The translations under genes and the position numbers were made by a program. Below are positions 14,015 to 28,347 of a stretch of 64,000 nt of DNA, in pieces (the stretch's first letter is position 1; every line of letters starts with the position of its first letter). The DNA comes from Dehalococcoidia bacterium (GTDB taxonomy: Bacteria > Chloroflexota > Dehalococcoidia > Lucifugimonadales > UBA3495), in the NCBI GenBank assembly GCA_965116565.1, contig OZ220699.1, forward strand, positions 483,589-547,588, in the 5' to 3' direction. The notes under the pieces are model-generated. The model did not search any database. It was not told the DNA's origin and saw only the letters and a program-made list of their open reading frames with translations.

Positions 14015-15373
14015 ATGATGCCTGAACTTCATGAGCTATCGGTGGTAGAAGCCGCCGCGCAAATTCGCGAGGGAACCATTTCGCCGGTGGCCCTGGCGGA
14101 ATCGCTATTGGCGCGGATTGACGCGCTGGACGGGGACCTTCAGGCCTGGGTCACGATTGACCGGGACGCCGTGCTGGCGATGGCGCGGCAGCGGGAGGCC
14201 GAGGTGCAGAGCGGCGCGGCGCTGGGCCCCATCCACGGCGTGCCGGTGGGTCTGAAGGACATCTTCTACACCGAGGGGATGCTCACCGCGTGCGGCTCCA
14301 AGGTGTACGCCGACTTCGTCCCCAGCTTCGACGCCACGTCGGTGGCCAAGATCAAAGCCGCCGGCGGCATCATTCTGGGCAAGGCGGTCACCACCGAGTT
14401 CGCCACGTCCGACCCATCGCCGACGCGCAATCCCTGGAACCTGGAGCACACCCCCGGCGGTTCCAGCAGCGGGTCGTCGGCCGCGGTGGCGGCGCGCATG
14501 GTGCCGGCGGCGCTGGGCTCGCAGACCGGCGGCTCCACGTGCCGGCCGGCGGCGTACAACGGCATCGTGGGGCTGAAACCCACCTACGGGCGCATCAGCC
14601 GGTATGGAGTCGCGCCGGTGAGCTGGTCGCTGGACCACGTGGGCATCCTCACGCGCACGGTGGCGGACGCCGCGCTGATGCTGATGGTGCTGAGCGGCGA
14701 GGACGACAATGATCCCGGCAGCCTGCGCGAGCCCGTGCCCGACTTCGTGGCGCAGATGACGGAGCACGACCGGCCGCCGCGCATCGGGCTGGTGCGGCAG
14801 TATTACCAGGACTACGCTACGCCCGAGATCTGGGCGCATACGGAGGCGGTTGCCAACCAATTGGCGGAGGCGGGAGCAGAGGTGGAGGAGATCCCGCTGC
14901 CGGACAGCTTCGCCCGGGTGCACAGCTTCCAGCGGGTCGTCATGAACGTGGAGTGCGCCGGATTCCACCAGGCCAACCACCGCATCCGCGCCGCCGATTA
15001 CGGGCCGCGCATACGCGGCGGCATGGAGATGGGAATGATCATGCCCACGTCCACGTACATGAAGGCACAACGGCTGCGCCGGCAGTTCCGCGCCGACATG
15101 AGCGAGATGGCGGCCCGGGTGGACGTGGTGATGACGCCGGCAACGCCGGCGCCCGCGCCGAAGGACCTGAACACCACGGGGGACGCGGCGTTCCAGCAGC
15201 CGTGGACGGCGGCCGGCCTGCCGACGGTGGTGGTATCGACAGGACTGAGCGAGCTTGGGATGCCCATGGCCGTGCAGTTCGGCGGCCCGTGGGGTCAGGA
15301 GGGCCAGGTGCTGGGCGCAGGGCAGTGGTGCGAGCGCATCGCCGGCCTGAACCAGGCGCCGCCCGTTTCTTGA
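14015..15373 (+). CDS. Amidase-signature family enzyme
   Basis: GVPVGLKD (Lys), PGGSSSGS, GSQTGGSTCRPA (Ser-cisSer-Lys triad). Confidence 0.93.
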   Translation: MMPELHELSVVEAAAQIREGTISPVALAESLLARIDALDGDLQAWVTIDRDAVLAMARQREAEVQSGAALGPIHGVPVGLKDIFYTEGMLTACGSKVYADFVPSFDATSVAKIKAAGGIILGKAVTTEFATSDPSPTRNPWNLEHTPGGSSSGSSAAVAARMVPAALGSQTGGSTCRPAAYNGIVGLKPTYGRISRYGVAPVSWSLDHVGILTRTVADAALMLMVLSGEDDNDPGSLREPVPDFVAQMTEHDRPPRIGLVRQYYQDYATPEIWAHTEAVANQLAEAGAEVEEIPLPDSFARVHSFQRVVMNVECAGFHQANHRIRAADYGPRIRGGMEMGMIMPTSTYMKAQRLRRQFRADMSEMAARVDVVMTPATPAPAPKDLNTTGDAAFQQPWTAAGLPTVVVSTGLSELGMPMAVQFGGPWGQEGQVLGAGQWCERIAGLNQAPPVS

Positions 15374-15698
15374 CACCGCCAACCGTTCAGGAACTATAGC
15401 GATGCCCGACAATCAAGAACTGTTGAAACGCATCACGGCTCGTCCGGATGTGTTTGGAGGAAAACCGATTGTTCGCAACATGCGGATATCGGTCGAGCTC
15501 ATCCTGAGCCTTCTGAGCCAGGGAGCCACCACGCAAGAACTGCTGGACGACTACCCTGACTTGGAACCGGAAGACATGCGAGCCTGCGTTGCCTACGCTC
15601 ACGCCGTCATCGCCGGAGACACACTCGGCACGGTTTCAATAGCCGAGACATGACGCCGTTATGCTCAGCGTGCCCGCCCGTTTCTTGACACCCCCAAC
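15359..15698 (+). repeat. 25-bp direct repeat (15359-15383 / 15674-15698) flanking the DUF433 gene
   Basis: CCGCCCGTTTCTTGACACC(G/C)CCAAC, 24/25 identical; contains amidase stop codon and TTGACA. Confidence 0.85.
15402..15653 (+). CDS. DUF433-domain protein (orphan putative antitoxin)
   Basis: RITARPDVFGGKPIVRNMRISVELIL...LLDDYPDLEPEDMRACVAYA. Confidence 0.88.
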   Translation: MPDNQELLKRITARPDVFGGKPIVRNMRISVELILSLLSQGATTQELLDDYPDLEPEDMRACVAYAHAVIAGDTLGTVSIAET

Positions 15699-20467: not shown

Positions 20468-21262
20468 CTATGCGTCGGGCTTCACGTTCTCAACCAGGGT
20501 ACGCAAGAAGCCGACTGCGTCCGGTACGTCCCGGGCGATGCTCTCCTTGTCCAGAGGCAGGTGTTCGTGGCTGTAGAGGGCCGCGCCGCCGAACTCGGTC
20601 AGGTAGCGGTGGTTCTCGCCGGGAACGGGCGCGTCCGGCGGCAGTATCCCGTGCCGTTTGATCAGTTCGGTGATGATGCGCAGGTTGTGGCCGTCGCGTC
20701 CGCTGGTGGGATACTCGAATCCGTGGGCGCCCAGGACGGCTTTGTACGCGTTTTCCAGGGCGTTCTGGCCCATGCGGCCAATCTGCTTGTCGTCGGCATT
20801 GGCCAGGATACCCGCGTTTGCCATGGTTTCCAGTAAATCGGCCGCGCCGGTGGCGTCTTTCATTTTGCCCTCTACATCGTCCCAGTCGATGGACTCTTCG
20901 GGCAATTCAGTGTTTTCCTGGGGCAAGATTGGGGCTCCCTGCTTGGCGATGGAGTTGGCGAGGTTGTTGCGCAGGTGGCGGCGGCCGGCGAACTCGTCCG
21001 CCGTCATGCAGATCACGTCTATGCCGGAGGCTTCCGGCAGGCTCGCCTTCTGCAGCGCGCGGGCGCGCTCGCGCAGATCATCCAGCCACTCCTCCGTTGG
21101 GGAGTGCTTCTTGATGATCAGGACGTCGATGTCGGAATCGGGCCGATGGTCGCCGCGGGCGCGCGAGCCGAACAGGATGGTCTGCTCCGGTTCCGCCATT
21201 CGGTGGACCTCGCGGGCCACTGCAACGGCGCGCCGGTCCGCTTTGATAGCGTGGACGGTCAT
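20468..21262 (-). CDS. Fused nucleotidyltransferase (MNT) - HEPN protein
   Basis: LFGSRARGD...DSDIDVL, then QNALENAYKAVLGAHG...GRDGHNL; start uncertain (21262 or 21307). Confidence 0.8.
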   Translation of the reverse strand: MTVHAIKADRRAVAVAREVHRMAEPEQTILFGSRARGDHRPDSDIDVLIIKKHSPTEEWLDDLRERARALQKASLPEASGIDVICMTADEFAGRRHLRNNLANSIAKQGAPILPQENTELPEESIDWDDVEGKMKDATGAADLLETMANAGILANADDKQIGRMGQNALENAYKAVLGAHGFEYPTSGRDGHNLRIITELIKRHGILPPDAPVPGENHRYLTEFGGAALYSHEHLPLDKESIARDVPDAVGFLRTLVENVKPDA

Positions 21263-21307
21263 GGCTTTCGCAGTCGGTGGTTCGGCAGGTTGGCGGGAGA
21301 TTTTCAT

Positions 21308-21448
21308 CCGCTCATGGTGGGCCTGTCGAACCATCCGTCGATTGCAATGGCATCCGTCGACAGGCTCAGGATGAGCGGGAAGGCGGTCAGGATGATCGGG
21401 AAGGCGATCAGGGTGAGCGGGAACAGGGTCAGGATGAGCGGGAGGGGA
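21308..21448. repeat. Inverted REP pair (CCTGTCGAACCA / TCGACAGGCTCAGGATGAGCGG) followed by four 21-bp tandem derivatives
   Basis: Units at 21365, 21386, 21407, 21428, consensus nTCAGGaTGAgCGGGAagg. Confidence 0.8.
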
Positions 21449-22249
21449 TCAGGACCCGAGGAAATTTTTGACGACGCTGAGGAACTCGTCGGTTTTTTCG
21501 ATGTGGGGGTTGTGGCCGCAGTTGTCGAATACCGTGAGACGGGAGTTGGGGATGGACTCGTTGTAAACCTGGCTGGCGCTGACGGGGACGATCTCGTCTT
21601 CCCGGCCCCAGATGATCTGCGTGGGCAGACGCTTGAGTCTATGCAGCAGGTTGGGCAGGCCGGGATAGTGCATGTAGGGGCGCCAACTGAGCCGGCAGGC
21701 CTCCTCGCGGGCGATCTCCCACGCCTCCGACAGCTCGGGGGAAACTTCGTCGGGGCAGACGTCGAGAAACTCGGGAGTGCTGGCGGTGTCGTAGAAGCCG
21801 GCGGTGCAGAACTCCTTGGCGACGGCGAGGAACATGTCGTAGATCTCACCCTCCGGCGGACGAATACCGGCGGGGCTGACCAGCACCAGCTTGTTGAATG
21901 TGTCGGGGGACATCGCAGCCATTTCGGCGGCGAGCCAACCCCCGATGGAAAAGCCCATGAGGTTTGCGCCCTGGAGGCCGAGGTCGTCGATGGCTTCGAG
22001 ATACCAGCCGGCCAGGTCGCGCATGTTCATGATCCATTCCTGGCGTTCGGTTGCGCCGAAGCCGGGGTGGGACGGTATGTAGAGGGAGTAGTCCTGGGCA
22101 AGGGCGTCGTAGCAGCGGAGCCATGCCCGGTGTCCCAGTTCGTCGTGCAGCACGAGCAGGGGCGTTCCGCTGCCGCCTTTGACCATCTGAAGGCTGACGC
22201 CGGCTGCCTCCACGAATTCTTCCGTCCATGCTTGCGCGCCTGTCGCCAT
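21449..22249 (-). CDS. Alpha/beta hydrolase
   Basis: HPGFG, GFSIGG nucleophile elbow, WGRED, CGHNPH. Confidence 0.88.
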   Translation of the reverse strand: MATGAQAWTEEFVEAAGVSLQMVKGGSGTPLLVLHDELGHRAWLRCYDALAQDYSLYIPSHPGFGATERQEWIMNMRDLAGWYLEAIDDLGLQGANLMGFSIGGWLAAEMAAMSPDTFNKLVLVSPAGIRPPEGEIYDMFLAVAKEFCTAGFYDTASTPEFLDVCPDEVSPELSEAWEIAREEACRLSWRPYMHYPGLPNLLHRLKRLPTQIIWGREDEIVPVSASQVYNESIPNSRLTVFDNCGHNPHIEKTDEFLSVVKNFLGS

Positions 22250-22570
22250 GTGCCAAGACCTCCTCGTTCTCGTTTGAAATGGGGCGCATTAGATACTGCC
22301 TAGCCATCATAACACGGTGGTGATGGAGGCCAAGTCACCGGCCTCCGTGCACACGAGCGATCTGAATGTTTCGGCCCTCGGTGGGCCGTGGTTACCCAGG
22401 TGGTTGCGTAACCCAAGAGGTCGTCCAAGAAGCAAACCGGATCATACCCGTCGCGAGCAGCCAGGTTTGATTGAATGTCCGATACACCCAAGACCAGCAT
22501 GGCGTGTATGGCGCGGTTGGTATAATGCGGTCGTAATCGCGCGCGGTCCCACCGGTGCGGAGATACCCAC

Positions 22571-24070
22571 ATGACAACGAACCGCAGTGCCGAATACCTC
22601 TCCGGTCTGGTGCATGAGCTGCGCCGTCTGCCCCACGAAACCGAGTGGGTAGAGTTCAAGAAAAACCACGCCAACCCAGAAATGATTGGTGAGGATATCG
22701 CAGCCCTGTCCAACGGCGCAGCCCTGCATAGTCGGGAAAAGGCCTATATGCTTTGGGGTGTTGAAGACGAAACACATGTCGTTGTGGGCACTGATTTTGT
22801 GCCGGGCGCCGCAAAAGGCAAGGGCAACTCTCTTCTGGAGCCTTGGCTGTTGGCGAAGTTACGCCCGCAGGTGAACTTCGGCTTTCACATAGCTGAGGTT
22901 GATGGGCAGCGTGTCGTCGTTTTAGAAATTGAACCGTCCACGCAGCATCCGGTTGCTTTTGAGAACGAGCGGTTTATCCGCGTTGGCAGCGCCACCAAAA
23001 AGCTCAAAGATCACCCGGAAAAAGAACGCGCCCTGTGGCGTACTTTGGAGCGGACAAACTTCGAGAGTGGGGTAGCTTACGAACGGGCACGTAGCGAGGA
23101 TGTCTTGCTGAAGCTTGACTACCCCGAATATTTCAGTCTGCTGGACGCCCCATTGCCTGATGGCCGCGGTTCCATTCTGGAGGCGTTACAGGGCGACAGA
23201 CTCATCGTACCTTGCGATGCCGGCGGTTGGAACATCACCAACCTGGGCGCCATATTGTTGGCCAAAAATCTGAGGGATTTCTCCAGCGTATGGCGCAAAA
23301 CGTTGCGCGTCATTCAATATCGAGGGGAAGGACGCACCGAAACCCAGCGCGAACAGGAATTCCCCGGCGGTTACGCTACGGAATTTGATTCCATTGTCAA
23401 TTACATTGTGGCATTAACTCCAGCCACTGAAGTCATTGACGGGTCTTTCCGGCGCGCGGTTCCCACGTACCCGCTGATCGCATTGCGTGAACTGGTGGCC
23501 AACGCTCTGATACACCAAGATTTCTCCGTTGCCGGCGCTGGGCCAACTGTCGAGATTTTCGATAATCGCATCGAAATCACCAACCCAGGAGAACCGTTGG
23601 TCGATACGGAGCGTTTCCTGGACACACCACCCAAGTCTCGAAATGAGATACTGGCTGCTATGATGCGAAGGTTCGACATCTGCGAGGAACGTGGCACCGG
23701 CATCGACAAAGCTGTATTGAGCGTTGAGTTGCATCAGTTACCCGCACCTCTTTTCGAAGCGCCAGAGGCATTCACGCGGATATTTCTGTTTGCGCGTAAG
23801 CCGTTGTCAGCCATGGACAGACCAGAACGCGTGCGTGCCTGCTATCTGCACGCTTGTCTGCGGTATGTCGCCAATCAATCCATGAACAACGCTTCAATCC
23901 GCGAACGCTTCGGGATAGCTACACAGAACGCGGCCATCGCCTCCCGGTACCTCCGCGAAGCTTTGGACGACGGTTATATCGTGATAAGCAATCCCAGCGC
24001 CGGAGCACGGAACCGGACATACCTTCCTTTCTGGGCCAATCGGCACGAAATCGGAGACCAAGTTCTTTGA
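22571..24070 (+). CDS. Schlafen/AlbA_2 + HATPase-like (RecG C-terminal type) + wHTH protein, paralog 1
   Basis: ETEWVEFK, RELVANALIHQDF, IEITNPG, CEERGTGIDK; TATAAT at 22521. Confidence 0.85.
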   Translation: MTTNRSAEYLSGLVHELRRLPHETEWVEFKKNHANPEMIGEDIAALSNGAALHSREKAYMLWGVEDETHVVVGTDFVPGAAKGKGNSLLEPWLLAKLRPQVNFGFHIAEVDGQRVVVLEIEPSTQHPVAFENERFIRVGSATKKLKDHPEKERALWRTLERTNFESGVAYERARSEDVLLKLDYPEYFSLLDAPLPDGRGSILEALQGDRLIVPCDAGGWNITNLGAILLAKNLRDFSSVWRKTLRVIQYRGEGRTETQREQEFPGGYATEFDSIVNYIVALTPATEVIDGSFRRAVPTYPLIALRELVANALIHQDFSVAGAGPTVEIFDNRIEITNPGEPLVDTERFLDTPPKSRNEILAAMMRRFDICEERGTGIDKAVLSVELHQLPAPLFEAPEAFTRIFLFARKPLSAMDRPERVRACYLHACLRYVANQSMNNASIRERFGIATQNAAIASRYLREALDDGYIVISNPSAGARNRTYLPFWANRHEIGDQVL

Positions 24071-24171
24071 TGGTTGTTTGATAGAACAAAGGTAAATCAG
24101 GCGATCGTACGACTTGCACGCACTGAATCCTATTGCAATTCATGCCCGATTTTGTTTGATGGTTGTTTGAT
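24066..24171 (+). repeat. Exact 17-bp direct repeat TTTGATGGTTGTTTGAT (24066-24082, 24155-24171)
   Basis: Two identical copies 89 bp apart, each itself an 11-bp-period repeat of TTTGAT. Confidence 0.8.
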
Positions 24172-24202: not shown

Positions 24203-25204
24203 ATGCCCAACCCCACCGTCCACATCATCGCGACCGGCGGCAGCATTGCCGGCGTCGGGCCCGACCGCATGGACTACATACGCTATCCCGAGATCGGCGA
24301 CCACCTGACCATCGACCAGAACCTGGCCCGCGTGCCGGAGATTGCCCAGAACTTCAACGTCATCGCCGAGGACATGGTCAGCGTGGGCAGCACCGCCATC
24401 GGCCCCGCCAACTGGATTGCCCTGGCCGAGCGCATCCACGCCATCGACCGCGAGGAACCCGACACCGCCGGCGTCGTCATCACCCACGGCACCGCGACGC
24501 TGGAGGAGACGGCCTACTTCCTGCACCTGACGGTCAAGACCCAGCGGCCCGTGGTCATCACCGGCGCCATGCGGCCGCCGACGTCCATCAGCACCGACGC
24601 CGACCTGAACCTGCTGGACGCGTGCCGGATCGCGGCCACGCCGGAATCGGCGGGCATGGGCGTGCTCACGGTGCTCAACAACCAGATCCAATGCGCGCGG
24701 GAGGTGTACAAGGCCAACACCCTGCGCGTCGAGACCTTCAAGCCCAACGAGTTGGGTTTCCTGGGCTACGCAGACTCCGACCACCGGGTGGTCTTCTATC
24801 GGCGACCCTACCGCAAGCACACCACGGACACCCCCTTCCGCGTGGACGGCATGGCCGATCTGCCCCGGGTGGACATCGTCCACGCCTACGCCGGCGCGGA
24901 CGGCATGCTGATCGACGCGGCCCGAGCCCACGGATCGGCCGGCCTGGTGGTGGCCGGATTCGGCGCGGGCACTTTCCCGCCCACGTTCATCGCGGCGGCG
25001 GAGCAGGCCGTGGCCGCAGGGATGCCCGTCGTACTCGCCAGCCGTTCCAGCGCCGGCCGCGTGGTGATGACGCCGCGCAAGGACGAGCAGGGGTTCATCG
25101 TGTCGGACAACCTGATGCCGCAGAAAGCGCGCCTGCTGCTCATGCTCGGCCTGACCGTCAGCAACGACCGGGACACACTCCAGCAAATGTTTTACGAATA
25201 CTGA
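24203..25204 (+). CDS. Asparaginase/glutaminase-family protein with non-canonical active site
   Basis: ATGGSIAG, HGTATLEETAY, VVITGAMRP, KARLLLML; start reassigned to ATG 24203 (GGAGG RBS). Confidence 0.9.
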   Translation: MPNPTVHIIATGGSIAGVGPDRMDYIRYPEIGDHLTIDQNLARVPEIAQNFNVIAEDMVSVGSTAIGPANWIALAERIHAIDREEPDTAGVVITHGTATLEETAYFLHLTVKTQRPVVITGAMRPPTSISTDADLNLLDACRIAATPESAGMGVLTVLNNQIQCAREVYKANTLRVETFKPNELGFLGYADSDHRVVFYRRPYRKHTTDTPFRVDGMADLPRVDIVHAYAGADGMLIDAARAHGSAGLVVAGFGAGTFPPTFIAAAEQAVAAGMPVVLASRSSAGRVVMTPRKDEQGFIVSDNLMPQKARLLLMLGLTVSNDRDTLQQMFYEY

Positions 25205-25274
25205 CGGTATCGGGCGGAATGTGACAGCGTGTGAGCCGCGCATTCCGCCAGAACGATTGTGAGTATGATGCTGC

Positions 25275-26777
25275 TTGAAAACCACATCCCGGCAAGAGCG
25301 TGCCGACAGGATTCCACACAGAGACGCCGAATATCTGACCAATCTGGTTGACAACCTACGTCGGCTACCGTCCGAAACCGAGTGGGTGGAGTTCAAGGTC
25401 AACAACGCAACGGAACCACAAACAATCGGCGAGTACATATCCGCCCTGGCCAATGCGGCTGCACTGAACGGAAAAGATGCATCATATATGCTATGGGGCA
25501 TTGAGGATGGCAGCCACGCCATAGTCGGCACGGCATTCAAGCCTGCTACAGCAAGACAGGGCAACGAACCCCTAGAAAACTGGCTGCGACGCGGACTGAC
25601 ACCACCACTGGATTTTCGCTTTCACGAAGTAGCGCATGACGGAAAGCGTGTTGTCATTCTGCAGTTGGAAAAGACGAGGCTACAACCGGTAGCTTTCAGA
25701 GGCGAGCGGTTCATACGAGTCAGCGATGTAAAGAAGAACCTCCGTGAGCATCCTGAGAAAGAACGTGCGTTGTGGCGCATTCTTGAGCAGTTTAATTTTG
25801 AGAGCGAGGTAGCATTCGATAAAGCAAGCGACGACGATGTTCTGTCCAGCTTGAACTGCCCCGCTTACTTTGACCGACTTAGCCAGCCACTTCCAGATGG
25901 GCGTGCTGCTATTCTAAGCGCGTTGCAGAACCGTCAACTGATTGTGCCCTGCGACGCAGGCGGTTGGAGTATCACTAATGTAGCTGCGGTACTGTTCGCC
26001 CATAACCTGCATGACTTTCCGCGAATACGGGGTAAAGCAATGCGGGTTATTCAATATCGTGGTGAGGGGCGAACCGAGACTCAGCGCGAGCAGGAATTCA
26101 CGCAAGGTTATGCTGTAGCGTTTAGCTCTATCATAGACTACATCATGACACTGGTTCCGGCTAATGAAGTAATCGAACAGGCTTTGCGCAGGGAAATGCC
26201 TATGTTCCCTCATATAGCGGTGCGTGAACTGGTAGCCAATGCGCTGATCCACCAGGATTTCTCGGTTGCCGGGGCTGGGCCAAAGGTAGAAATATACGAC
26301 ACCCGTATCGAAATCACTAATCCGGGGAAACCACTGGTCCCTACGGAACGTTTTGTGGATGCGGAACAGACACGCAATGATCAGTTGACCGGATTGATGC
26401 GTAGATTCAATATTTGTGAAGAGCGTGGTAGCGGCATTGACAAGGTGGCTGAGCAAGTCGAACTGTTCCAACTTCCAGCGCCTCTTTTTGAAACTGCACT
26501 AGGCTCCACACGCGCTGTGCTTTTCGCCCACAAGGCCTTGTCTGATATGGACCGTGCAGAACGGGTTCGTGCCTCCTATCTGCACGCCTGCTTGCGGTAC
26601 GTAATGCAACAGCCGATGAACACCAGTTCATTGCGAGAGAGGTTTAGCATCGCCAACGACCGCACTGACTTAGCCTCTCGTCTGCTTAGGGAAGCAGTGA
26701 ACGATGGAGCAATCGTCGTTCGTGACCCCACCGTGGGAAACAGGAGTCGCACCTACCTGCCACACTGGGCTGCTTGA
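25275..26777 (+). CDS. Schlafen/AlbA_2 + HATPase-like + wHTH protein, paralog 2
   Basis: Colinear with 22571..24070 (shared ETEWVEFK, LIVPCDAGGW, VIQYRGEGRTETQREQEF); start uncertain; lower GC. Confidence 0.85.
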   Translation: MKTTSRQERADRIPHRDAEYLTNLVDNLRRLPSETEWVEFKVNNATEPQTIGEYISALANAAALNGKDASYMLWGIEDGSHAIVGTAFKPATARQGNEPLENWLRRGLTPPLDFRFHEVAHDGKRVVILQLEKTRLQPVAFRGERFIRVSDVKKNLREHPEKERALWRILEQFNFESEVAFDKASDDDVLSSLNCPAYFDRLSQPLPDGRAAILSALQNRQLIVPCDAGGWSITNVAAVLFAHNLHDFPRIRGKAMRVIQYRGEGRTETQREQEFTQGYAVAFSSIIDYIMTLVPANEVIEQALRREMPMFPHIAVRELVANALIHQDFSVAGAGPKVEIYDTRIEITNPGKPLVPTERFVDAEQTRNDQLTGLMRRFNICEERGSGIDKVAEQVELFQLPAPLFETALGSTRAVLFAHKALSDMDRAERVRASYLHACLRYVMQQPMNTSSLRERFSIANDRTDLASRLLREAVNDGAIVVRDPTVGNRSRTYLPHWAA

Positions 26778-26837
26778 ATTTTATTTGCACGTTGTCTGCA
26801 AAATCGGCGCGAATCGCACGTTTGCCCACATCCTCCA

Positions 26838-26901
26838 CATGCTCGGCCTAACCATTTCGGACGAACGGGACGCGCTGTAGCAAATGTTTTACGAATACTG
26901 A
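26838..26901 (+). pseudogene. Diverged copy of the last 21 codons of the asparaginase gene
   Basis: 52/64 nt identical to 25141-25204, no indels; MLGLTISDERDAL*QMFYEY* vs MLGLTVSNDRDTLQQMFYEY*. Confidence 0.9.
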
Positions 26902-26973
26902 TACCCCATTGCATTTATCGGAGTGTATAATGCGCTCCATTCCGCCTCTGGAGCCACATTAGGAGCGCGACGA

Positions 26974-28347
26974 ATGGCACACGCAGCCAGCATCAGTCCT
27001 TCGCAACCCGACACTCAGGACGTGGAGCCGCGCACCAAGGGCTCCGTGATGGCGACCACGCTCATCGGGGCGCACGCCTTCGAACATCTCTACGCCCACA
27101 GCATACCCCTGTTGGCGACGGTGATCGCCCTCGACCTGGGACTTGGCGCGCTGCAGGTGGGAATGATCGTGGTGGTGCGATCGATTTTCGGCGGTCTGAC
27201 CAGCGTGTCCGGCGGCATCCTGGTGGACCTGTTCCACCACAGAGTGGCCTGGGTGTTGTCCATCAGCACCTTTATGATCGGCACCGGTTACCTGCTCATG
27301 TCCATCGCGCCCACCTTTGGGCTGATAATCGGCGCCCTGGCCCTGGGTTCCATGGGCAGCGCGTTGTGGCATCCGCCGGCCTTGGGCCTGCTGGCACGCC
27401 GATTCCCACAGCGGCGCGGCCTGTTCATATCGATGCACCGCTCCACGGGCAGCATCGGCGACGTGCTGGGGCCGATGGTCGCCGGGGCGTTGGTGCTGGG
27501 CGCGCTGGCCTGGAGCGCCGGCGAAGCCGAGGACATCGTAACCCAGGGTTGCGGAGCGCTGCCCTTCTGCTGGCAATTGCCCTGGCCCGCCATCAGCTGG
27601 CGTTGGGTGCTGGGCGTCAGCACGCCGATAATGTTCATCTCCACCGTGCTGATATTCATCCTGCTGCGCAACGCCGGTGGGGAGCGTCCCGTCGGCGTGG
27701 ACGTAAGCGCGCGCGTCCGCACCAACTGGGCCGGAATGAAGGACGCCTTCCGCGGCACCGGAATGTGGGCCATCTTCACCGTGTCCGCCGTTCGCGGCAT
27801 GGCCGACCGGTCGCTGGTGTTCCTGATCCCCCTGTACCTGACCCAGGCGCTGGGCGCGAACACCTTCCTGGCATCGGCCCACGTCGCCCTCATGGTCGGC
27901 CCCGGCATCCTGGCCGGCCCGCTGATCGGCGCGTTCTCGGACAAGGTGGGCCGCCGCCCGCTGATCATCTTCATCATGGCGGCCACCACGCTGCTGACCC
28001 TCGGCATCATCTGGGCCGGCCAGTCGCACCAGGTATATACCTTCTGGATCACACTCTTTGTGGGAATCTACGGCCTGCTGAACTTCTCGGTGAACAACCT
28101 GACCCAGGCCGCCGCCGCCGACATCGCCGCCGGCCGTCGCCTGGAGTCCAGCTTCCTCGGCCTGATGTGGGGCAACAACACGCTGTTCGGCGCCGTTGCG
28201 GCCGTCATGATCTTCGGGCCGGTGGAATGGTTCGACTGGCAGTACGGGTTCTACATTGCGGCCGGGATCTACTTCGTGGGCCTGCTGGTGTCTCTGCTGA
28301 TCCCCGGCAAGCCCAAGGAACCCGAAGCGGTGGCGGTTCCGGCCTGA
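26974..28347 (+). CDS. MFS transporter (paralog 1)
   Basis: ~12 TM, WHPPALG, GAFSDKVGRR motif A in C-half; AGGAG RBS before ATG 26974. Confidence 0.9.
   Translation: MAHAASISPSQPDTQDVEPRTKGSVMATTLIGAHAFEHLYAHSIPLLATVIALDLGLGALQVGMIVVVRSIFGGLTSVSGGILVDLFHHRVAWVLSISTFMIGTGYLLMSIAPTFGLIIGALALGSMGSALWHPPALGLLARRFPQRRGLFISMHRSTGSIGDVLGPMVAGALVLGALAWSAGEAEDIVTQGCGALPFCWQLPWPAISWRWVLGVSTPIMFISTVLIFILLRNAGGERPVGVDVSARVRTNWAGMKDAFRGTGMWAIFTVSAVRGMADRSLVFLIPLYLTQALGANTFLASAHVALMVGPGILAGPLIGAFSDKVGRRPLIIFIMAATTLLTLGIIWAGQSHQVYTFWITLFVGIYGLLNFSVNNLTQAAAADIAAGRRLESSFLGLMWGNNTLFGAVAAVMIFGPVEWFDWQYGFYIAAGIYFVGLLVSLLIPGKPKEPEAVAVPA

Follow-up and report, generated by a model that had tools for sequence, protein, structure and literature searches.

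An AlbA_2–ATPase cassette between an asparaginase gene and a decayed copy of its 3' end: a candidate insertion with long target duplication in marine Chloroflexota

Restriction–modification (RM) units that carry no mobility genes have been found between unique direct repeats of 30-420 bp that are single at the empty site (PMC2853133), an arrangement for which the Kobayashi group introduced the term insertion with long target duplication (Nobusato, Uchiyama, Ohashi & Kobayashi 2000, Gene 259:99; Furuta, Abe & Kobayashi 2010, NAR 38:2428, PMC2853133). The stop codon of the target gene often lies inside these repeats, and the bias towards gene 3' ends has been explained by selection for an intact target gene (PMC2853133). 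The phenomenon has been catalogued for RM genes since 2000, with its mechanism never resolved there. For ribosomal RNA (rRNA) genes with a 21-nt insert, a route of tandem duplication followed by recombination has been proposed (2012, MBE 29:2937, PMC3457768). Here we describe a comparable arrangement in a window of 64,000 nucleotides (contig OZ220699.1, positions 483,589 to 547,588) of the complete chromosome, 3.87 Mb long with 62% GC, of a Dehalococcoidia bacterium. In this window an asparaginase gene is followed by a one-gene insert of 1.6 kb encoding a Schlafen/AlbA_2–HATPase_c_4 protein (par2), and the insert in turn by a second, decayed copy of the asparaginase gene's own 3' end. We lean towards reading the par2 site as a recombination hot spot that bears the scar of an insertion with long target duplication.

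How far does the likeness go? As in the published cases, a small addiction- or defence-type unit without transposase or integrase lies between direct repeats of tens to hundreds of base pairs that are unique in the genome and single at the related empty site; the insert has a different GC content, the neighbouring gene is left intact, and alleles are substituted for one another at the locus. The published criteria call for flanking repeats above 30 bp; those described here span 78 nt (77% identical, rising to 81% in a 64-nt core). The repeat is single, and both flanks are conserved, at the empty sites of the relatives G020 and G022 (G000 denotes the genome under study, G001 onward its relatives, and L046 and L048 metagenomic contigs); the insert is shorter than 20 kb, it holds no integrase or transposase, and the repeat is not a multi-copy sequence. 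The published screen looked for R and M genes in the cargo, which here is of the AlbA_2/HATPase_c_4 type, and the par2 site belongs to the "other DNAs" extension of long target duplication rather than to the RM set. Unlike the published examples, the cargo in this genome comprises Schlafen/AlbA_2–HATPase_c_4 genes, PIN genes, BrnT-like pairs, DUF433 and Uma2 genes; the host belongs to a marine Chloroflexota (SAR202) genus and shows many events in one genome; and a cassette family is tied to one target or "address" gene across species, with repeats that are variable and nested. The tie between family and address, together with the variable and nested repeats, suggests that homology drives a transfer between filled and empty alleles. 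The route proposed for rRNA genes is similar in that direct repeats are interrupted by DNA absent from the other allele and general recombination suffices, and different in that gene cassettes take the place of a 21-nt insert. The locus does not have the make-up of an integron cassette, as its direct 11-mer doublet occurs once in the genome, and neither an array nor a nearby integrase is present (no attC models were run), nor that of a transposon or insertion sequence (IS), with no inverted repeats bracketing 25205-26823, a duplication of 78 nt, and no transposase in the insert. We class the par2 site with long target duplication, as a case with other cargo and in a new phylum, and the comparative evidence favours a homology-driven route.

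Orthologues of the asparaginase gene are present in 24/24 genomes of the genus, at 85-98% amino acid identity. Its working end, copy A, and the orphan copy B are identical at 60 of 78 nt (77%) without gaps in a repeat search, and whole-genome self-BLAST returns a 64-nt core with 52/64 positions identical (81.25%, E = 2e-6). The homology starts about 78 nt ahead of the stop codon and ends exactly at the TGA, and a third copy of the tail is absent from the 3.87-Mb genome, leaving a repeat of exactly two copies. The 18 changes all fall in the first 55 nt of copy B; the last 23 nt (25182-25204 and 26879-26901) match exactly. About half of the differences lie on the side of copy A: the genus-consensus codons GAC, GCG, and CTG, for example, are kept in copy B, and several differences are changes of copy A. 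Changes that belong to copy B itself include R to H, L to H, and Q to stop. In this gene with 88% GC at third codon positions, the AT-rich end codons (CAA ATG TTT TAC GAA TAC) show nucleotide-level conservation over much of the genus, and the terminal 23-nt block is conserved among species too. Only G000, G016, and G017, among G000 and the 24 relatives, carry an orphan copy of the tail, and this block agrees with the genome's own tail at 23/23, 21/23, and 17/23 positions, respectively.

Two observations concern the end of the tail. In empty alleles, and likewise at copy B, the last seven asparaginase codons lie ~37-57 nt upstream of the -10 box of the MFS transporter gene, the position of an UP element; they are conserved just as well where par follows instead of the MFS promoter. 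In all three orphan copies, one of two adjacent Gln codons has changed from CAG to TAG, the same codon in G000 and G017 and the other in G016. These changes could be due to chance under GC-to-AT decay or to selection for a stop codon.

We compared 15 kb around the asparaginase gene in the 24 same-genus genomes. The interval that separates the asparaginase gene from the MFS gene is a hot spot in the genus. It is empty in G020 and G022 (71-77 bp) and in G011, G013, and G023 (about 240 bp); par directly follows the asparaginase gene in G001, G018, G019, and G024 and on the contigs L046 and L048; and a par remnant is left in G021. Other occupants are type IIG RM genes (G002, G009), a gene for a binding protein of about 800 aa (five genomes), a Uma2 gene (G005), and dCTP-deaminase-like and HNH-like genes (G016). 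G017 has the order asparaginase gene, binding-protein gene, tail copy, par; here a second cassette is stacked ahead of an older one, with the tail copy between them. At the right-hand border of the hot spot, GTGTATAATGCG upstream of the MFS gene is kept in all relatives examined, and the TACCCCATTGCATTT that comes after copy B in G000 stands behind the asparaginase stop in G020 and G022, where the allele is empty. Our statements on this promoter rest on the conservation of GTGTATAATGCG; a consensus promoter scan gave nothing useful.

Two further remnants were seen in relatives. Between the par repeats and the MFS gene, G018 and G024 hold a type IIG RM 3' remnant, ~100 codons long in G018 and shorter and broken in G024, of which G009 has the intact counterpart, a gene of 1090 aa, at this locus; part of an older occupant has therefore been overwritten. 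In G003, at C4 ~2254646-2254795, lies a 51-codon asparaginase C-terminal fragment (61% amino acid identity, one TAG), 600 kb from that genome's own asparaginase gene, which may be a transposed or rearranged tail copy.

Where does copy B come from? Downstream of it stands TACCCCATTGCATTTATCGG and then the MFS promoter GTGTATAATGCG, which is the sequence found after the asparaginase stop in empty alleles; copy B and this flank align continuously with the empty allele of G020 over 124 nt at 87%. The region 3' of copy A is homologous to that upstream of par in filled alleles. Among the 24 tails, that of G020 is nearest to copy B (66/78), and those of G020 and G024 are nearest to copy A (71/78 each). 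The copy in G016 has the same start (-78) and a homologous left junction with different cargo, and this common junction implies that the duplication predates the separation of the two alleles. The 12 differences between copy B and the G020 tail fit neutral decay since the split, as estimated from the 9% nucleotide divergence of the gene. Copy B is thus an old duplicate of the empty-type tail that belongs to the lineage itself, and its decay goes back to about the split of the species from its closest relatives. An initial annotation, made from the sequence of the window, had noted the gap-free 64-nt copy with its exact end and new TAG and had taken it to mark the border of the cassette; the repeat search and self-BLAST bear this out, and the match is not due to chance. 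Beside the changes that it described as mostly conservative, copy B has non-conservative ones, to H and to stop, and its AGC/TCG serine pair is better read as a single change from the Thr codon (ACC/ACG) found at that site in most of the genus. It had further argued that this is not a simple target duplication, as the copy had evolved as protein in another lineage, and had proposed to look for the matching relative and for empty sites. Both were found, the latter in G020, G022, and others, and the outcome speaks against that argument: copy B is nearest to the tail of G020, aligns with its empty allele together with the flank, and shares its junction with G016, and a tail from a distant lineage is therefore not needed. 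A distant source was rejected, the best match being the closest relative's own tail.

The cassette and the genes around it differ between genomes to unequal degrees. Among G000, G018, and G024, par is 63-70% identical at the amino acid level where asparaginase is 96-98% identical, and in the pair G001/L048 both are about 97% identical. That par is out of step with the flanking genes indicates that its alleles are replaced or exchanged at a fixed address, in line with the allele replacement from a relative that the initial annotation had offered as one option; the cassette alleles do not follow the species tree. In run X1, the probable source metagenome, summed depth over positions 24700-27200 is 300-550 for the asparaginase and MFS genes and ~26 for par2, and many co-occurring relatives therefore have the core genes without the cassette. 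Contigs similar to par2 (~94-96% nucleotide identity) occur in other metagenomes.

A genome-wide scan indicates that the arrangement recurs. Combining self-BLAST with seed-and-extend, we collected orphan two-copy matches of the last 150 nt of each gene within 6 kb at a score of at least 20. Downstream of their genes, 3' tails gave 14 orphan matches, compared with one for 3' tails searched upstream and four for 5' ends searched upstream, the two controls; 5' ends searched downstream gave eight, three of them being cargo genes of the same events. An anchored scan with 24-nt tails showed no enrichment, the signal being swamped by tandem paralogues. About ten scars analogous to the par2 site are present elsewhere in the genome. 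The candidates E8 and E10 were dropped as C-termini of tandem paralogues, and E13 (C1:3848738-3850084), a weak tail-copy candidate beside a 448-aa IS-type transposase, was not kept as a clean event. In nearly all clean events, cargo and address gene lie on the same strand. The right edge of the repeat ranges from -23 to +61 relative to the stop codon, and the stop codon itself is therefore not the target. The repeats of 11 events contain no common core motif, no k-mer rising above shuffled controls. No tyrosine recombinase was found near any event, and none within 100 kb of the par2 site; the genome encodes 11, the nearest about 138 kb away from it. The general 3'-end-directed capture route that had been suggested from the window thus holds as a recurring pattern; the rule is loose, given the spread of the edges, and the route is not new. 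The further case named with it, at 15359-15698, is one of the events (E4) and has empty alleles in relatives, and the absence of an integrase in cis was likewise correctly called.

Alleles at other addresses in relatives are informative about how such structures form. At E2, orthologues without cassette (G022, G046, G041, G002) end in WRE(S/T/G)AVIL, and the filled class, found by tblastn in 11 relatives, ends in GVL followed by a BrnT-like gene. In G000 the gene has the filled-type GVL end, and the tail copy behind the cassette is followed by the empty-type C-terminus ETAVIL; filled and empty allele are thus combined in one hybrid structure. At the same address in G018, a tail copy lies between two stacked cassettes. 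The E1 address, an enoyl-CoA hydratase-like gene, is empty in G016, G046, G017, and G042, and Uma2 alleles of 73-83% identity occupy the same place in G001, G018, and G043, so that four species have the family at this gene; the repeats in G000 measure 43 nt. In G018 (L081), the Uma2 gene is followed by nested copies, ~40 nt of the same type as the in-gene tail (PNFQGR) and, at once behind them, 300 nt or more of the PEFKGR type, the common one, which are the scar of a two-step or long-homology integration. At E4, the amidase stop codon and TTGACA box run straight to a tRNA gene in G041 and G002, where the site is empty; other relatives have DUF433 or different cargo. Variable repeat length with the same cassette family at the same address makes a site-specific enzyme or repeated random capture hard to invoke. 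Variable lengths would, by contrast, be the natural outcome if filled alleles gave rise to pieces with differing amounts of the address gene attached and these recombined with another allele.

In conjunction with the comparison of relatives, we propose the following model for the par2 site. It seems to us somewhat probable that a tail-plus-cassette unit from a relative's filled allele entered an empty or different allele by one homologous crossover, duplicating the tail. The source would be a related chromosome already carrying par at this address, and not naked foreign DNA. The cassette is self-contained, with its own promoter-like spacer, par2, and one 11-mer-doublet unit, and is placed immediately after the asparaginase stop; a piece made up of part of the asparaginase tail and the cassette would recombine by homology (RecA-type) with the empty allele. 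The unit might be a circle, or might arise by tandem duplication and then recombine with the empty allele, yielding the same product either way. A single crossover in the common tail would duplicate that tail, with the repeat length set by the length of address gene on the incoming piece; copy A keeps the gene intact, and copy B is still joined to the original downstream DNA with its MFS promoter. The direct repeats would later permit precise loss of the cassette, which may produce some of the empty alleles. Loss would join the asparaginase stop to TACCCCATTGC, and the reciprocal circle would connect the cassette end CGCACGTTTGCC via one tail copy to CGGTATCGGG. Homology-facilitated illegitimate recombination, reportedly described in naturally transformable bacteria by de Vries and Wackernagel in 2002, is similar in that a single homologous anchor, lying in a conserved gene, draws in a relative's foreign DNA next to it, and different in that it usually deletes recipient DNA rather than duplicating it.

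Several points weigh against this model. The exact match of the last 23 nt is not fully explained by it; the block could mark a crossover point, gene conversion, or a constraint at the DNA level, and as a forced crossover site it was rejected, being the longest block of inter-species identity only inside the 78-nt repeat and not in the whole gene. No circular or excised form and no A-to-B joint was seen in the assembled contigs, which drop rare variants. A circle would need an end-joining or pop-out step in a genome without Ku. The gene calls of the scan were our own and crude. Finally, de novo insertion at a staggered break followed by decay gives the same present-day structure at this locus. 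In this last account, which we regard as unlikely overall, foreign DNA was captured illegitimately in a staggered double-strand break, fill-in duplicated 25-300 nt, and copy B then decayed. It would sit well with the identical or near-identical repeats of young events (43/43 at E1, 51/52 at E2), with repeat sequences that are single-copy at empty sites, and with repeats of variable length without common core motif, and double-strand breakage has been suggested by Furuta et al. (PMC2853133). The Ku domain was not found in the genome, however, and capture by Ku-type, non-homologous end joining was down-weighted for this reason. Random capture would also not predict the same family at the same address in many species, as seen for par at asparaginase, BrnT-like genes at the CoA-transferase-like gene, and Uma2 at the hydratase gene, and the nested repeats of G018, with donor- and recipient-type endings, fit the transfer of an existing filled allele.

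Work on streptococcal integrative and conjugative elements, integrative and mobilizable elements, and cis-mobilizable elements (CIMEs) has described integrase-less islets bounded by attL and attR at gene 3' ends. The par2 site resembles these in holding a recombinase-less cassette between a gene's 3' end and its copy, and tandem stacking, with a tail copy between the units, is seen at the asparaginase gene of G017 and at the E2 address of G018. The repeats might then be attL and attR of a degraded, integrase-borne islet made, and perhaps still moved, by a tyrosine or serine recombinase acting in trans, a reading that we consider quite improbable. Gene 3' ends are typical targets of integrative elements that carry a replacement tail, the exact 23-nt block resembles an att core, and 11 tyrosine recombinases could be drawn upon; the nearest of their genes is nonetheless far from the site, the G017 copy lacks an exact core, and there is no conserved motif among the events. 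Unlike CIMEs, repeats here vary in length from 25 to >300 nt, even at a single address, and no cognate integrase element was found: there is no cognate recombinase in cis and no integrase-sized open reading frame (ORF) of such a role in the inspected inserts of relatives (the inserts of G006 and G007, >8 kb, left out). The notion that a full-length asparaginase paralogue once stood in tandem and left copy B as its last trace, which the initial annotation had set against its own reading, is contradicted by the data and hardly credible. A second asparaginase with 51% amino acid identity does exist in the genome, but 2.2 Mb away; the homology ends sharply 78 nt before the stop codon, 0/24 relatives have a tandem paralogue at the locus, copy B is nearest to a sister species' orthologous tail and not to the paralogue, and the analogous scars lie at other genes.

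What is the relevance of homology-driven transfer between alleles, should it be the route? The genus is a dense natural experiment, with >30 genomes, several address genes in empty, filled, and hybrid states, repeats that vary in age and length, and stacked cassettes, material from which a mechanism can be deduced and put to the test. Besides RM units, the process moves genes for Schlafen-like ATPases, modules of the PIN and BrnT-like kinds, and DUF433 and Uma2 genes. It would help to explain how accessory genes in free-living marine Chloroflexota come to lie singly in many intergenic gaps, with neither islands nor integrases. Orphan pieces of gene tails, such as that at 26824-26901, should be annotated as insertion scars and not as paralogue pseudogenes. 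We further speculate, and regard as possible if doubtful, that the small defence and toxin–antitoxin cassettes of this SAR202 genus form an integrase-free mobile pool, each family "addressed" to one gene. Moving between chromosomes with part of the gene's 3' end, variable in extent, a cassette would enter empty alleles by a single homologous crossover that duplicates the tail, and could leave via recombination between tail copies. If true, such a pool would give insertion with long target duplication the mechanism that it lacks and would be a RecA-only gene-cassette system, a functional parallel of integrons. The features of the locus and the further events are listed below.

Table 1. Features at and around the par2 site, and further tail-copy events in the genome (positions refer to the window).
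Feature	Position	Strand	Basis or remarks
Asparaginase gene, target or "address" gene	24203-25204	+	Pfam Asparaginase and Asparaginase_C; NCBIfam type II TIGR00520, 316 bits
Tail copy A, working last 25 codons and TGA of the asparaginase gene	25127-25204	+	Repeat search, tail comparison
Left end of cassette, spacer with -10-like GAGTATGATG	25205-25274	+	Sequence comparison; homologous to GGGTATAATG upstream of relatives' par genes
par2, Schlafen/AlbA_2 and HATPase_c_4 protein, ~490-500 aa	25275-26777	+	Pfam; start codon uncertain; low-GC cargo
11-mer doublet TTTGCACGTTGTCTGCAAA, immediately behind the stop codon of par2	26784-26802	+	One unit of relatives' 77-bp post-par repeats
Tail copy B, decayed orphan asparaginase 3' end	26824-26901	+	Repeat search, tail comparison; in-frame TAG at 26878-26880
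Original downstream flank with conserved extended -10 TGTATAAT (26924-26931) of the MFS gene	26902-26973	+	Conservation
MFS transporter gene, core gene on the right side of the hot spot	26974-28347	+	Pfam MFS_1; 74-96% amino acid identity in relatives
par1, second AlbA_2/HATPase_c_4 cassette, upstream of the asparaginase gene	22571-24070	+	Pfam
Two 11-mer doublets (TTSTTTGATGG TTGTTTGATNN), 89 bp apart, after par1	24063-24171	+	Repeat search
E1, Uma2 gene			Repeats 43/43 identical
E2, pair read as BrnT/BrnA-like from sequence			Repeats 51/52; no Pfam match
E3, PIN gene and partner			Repeats 96 nt at 94%
E4, DUF433 gene (15402-15653)	15358-15698	+	Repeats of ~26 nt (15358-15383, 15672-15698), spanning the amidase stop codon and a TTGACA box
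E6, uncharacterised gene, 181 aa
E7, PIN gene
E9, uncharacterised gene, 166 aa

The par2 product matches SLFN_AlbA_2 (PF04326, 58.4 bits) and HATPase_c_4 (PF13749, 67.9 bits) above the gathering thresholds and in the usual order, as does that of par1 with 61.3 and 76.7 bits for the same two families, and the two proteins are 61% identical. The par2 stretch has 51-54% GC compared with 68-69% in the flanking genes. In a search of 5.8 billion proteins, the closest relative was 73% identical and at least 7993 relatives were found at E<=1e-50; PADLOC gave weak matches only. The spacer ahead of par2 may act as its promoter, to judge from its -10-like element and its counterparts in relatives.

Directly behind the par genes there are in every case short repeats of a common design. 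In G001, G004, G016, G018, G019, and G024 and on L046 and L048, units of 77 bp follow par, one to four per locus, each opening with the 11-mer doublet TTGCTTGCNCG TTGCTTGCAAA. The type of doublet tracks the type of par: TTSTTTGATGG TTGTTTGATNN stands behind par1-type genes and TTGCTTGCNCG TTGCTTGCAAA behind par2-type genes, with a spacing of 89 or 77 bp and one to four repetitions. They resemble iteron or operator arrays, and are possibly bound by the par protein. The motif after par2 is found once in the G000 genome and is tied to par genes only, and was rejected as a genome-wide recombination site at cassette ends.

At the position of par1, a cassette is present in G004, with the same layout of doublets behind it, and missing in G016, G018, and G022; a search for a target duplication around par1 found none. 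Upstream of par1, the plus-strand ORF at 20975-22303 has no Pfam match and is outscored in codon scoring by minus-strand genes at 20468-21334 and 21449-22249. Its apparent conservation in relatives by tblastn is probably that of the antisense strand of these two genes.

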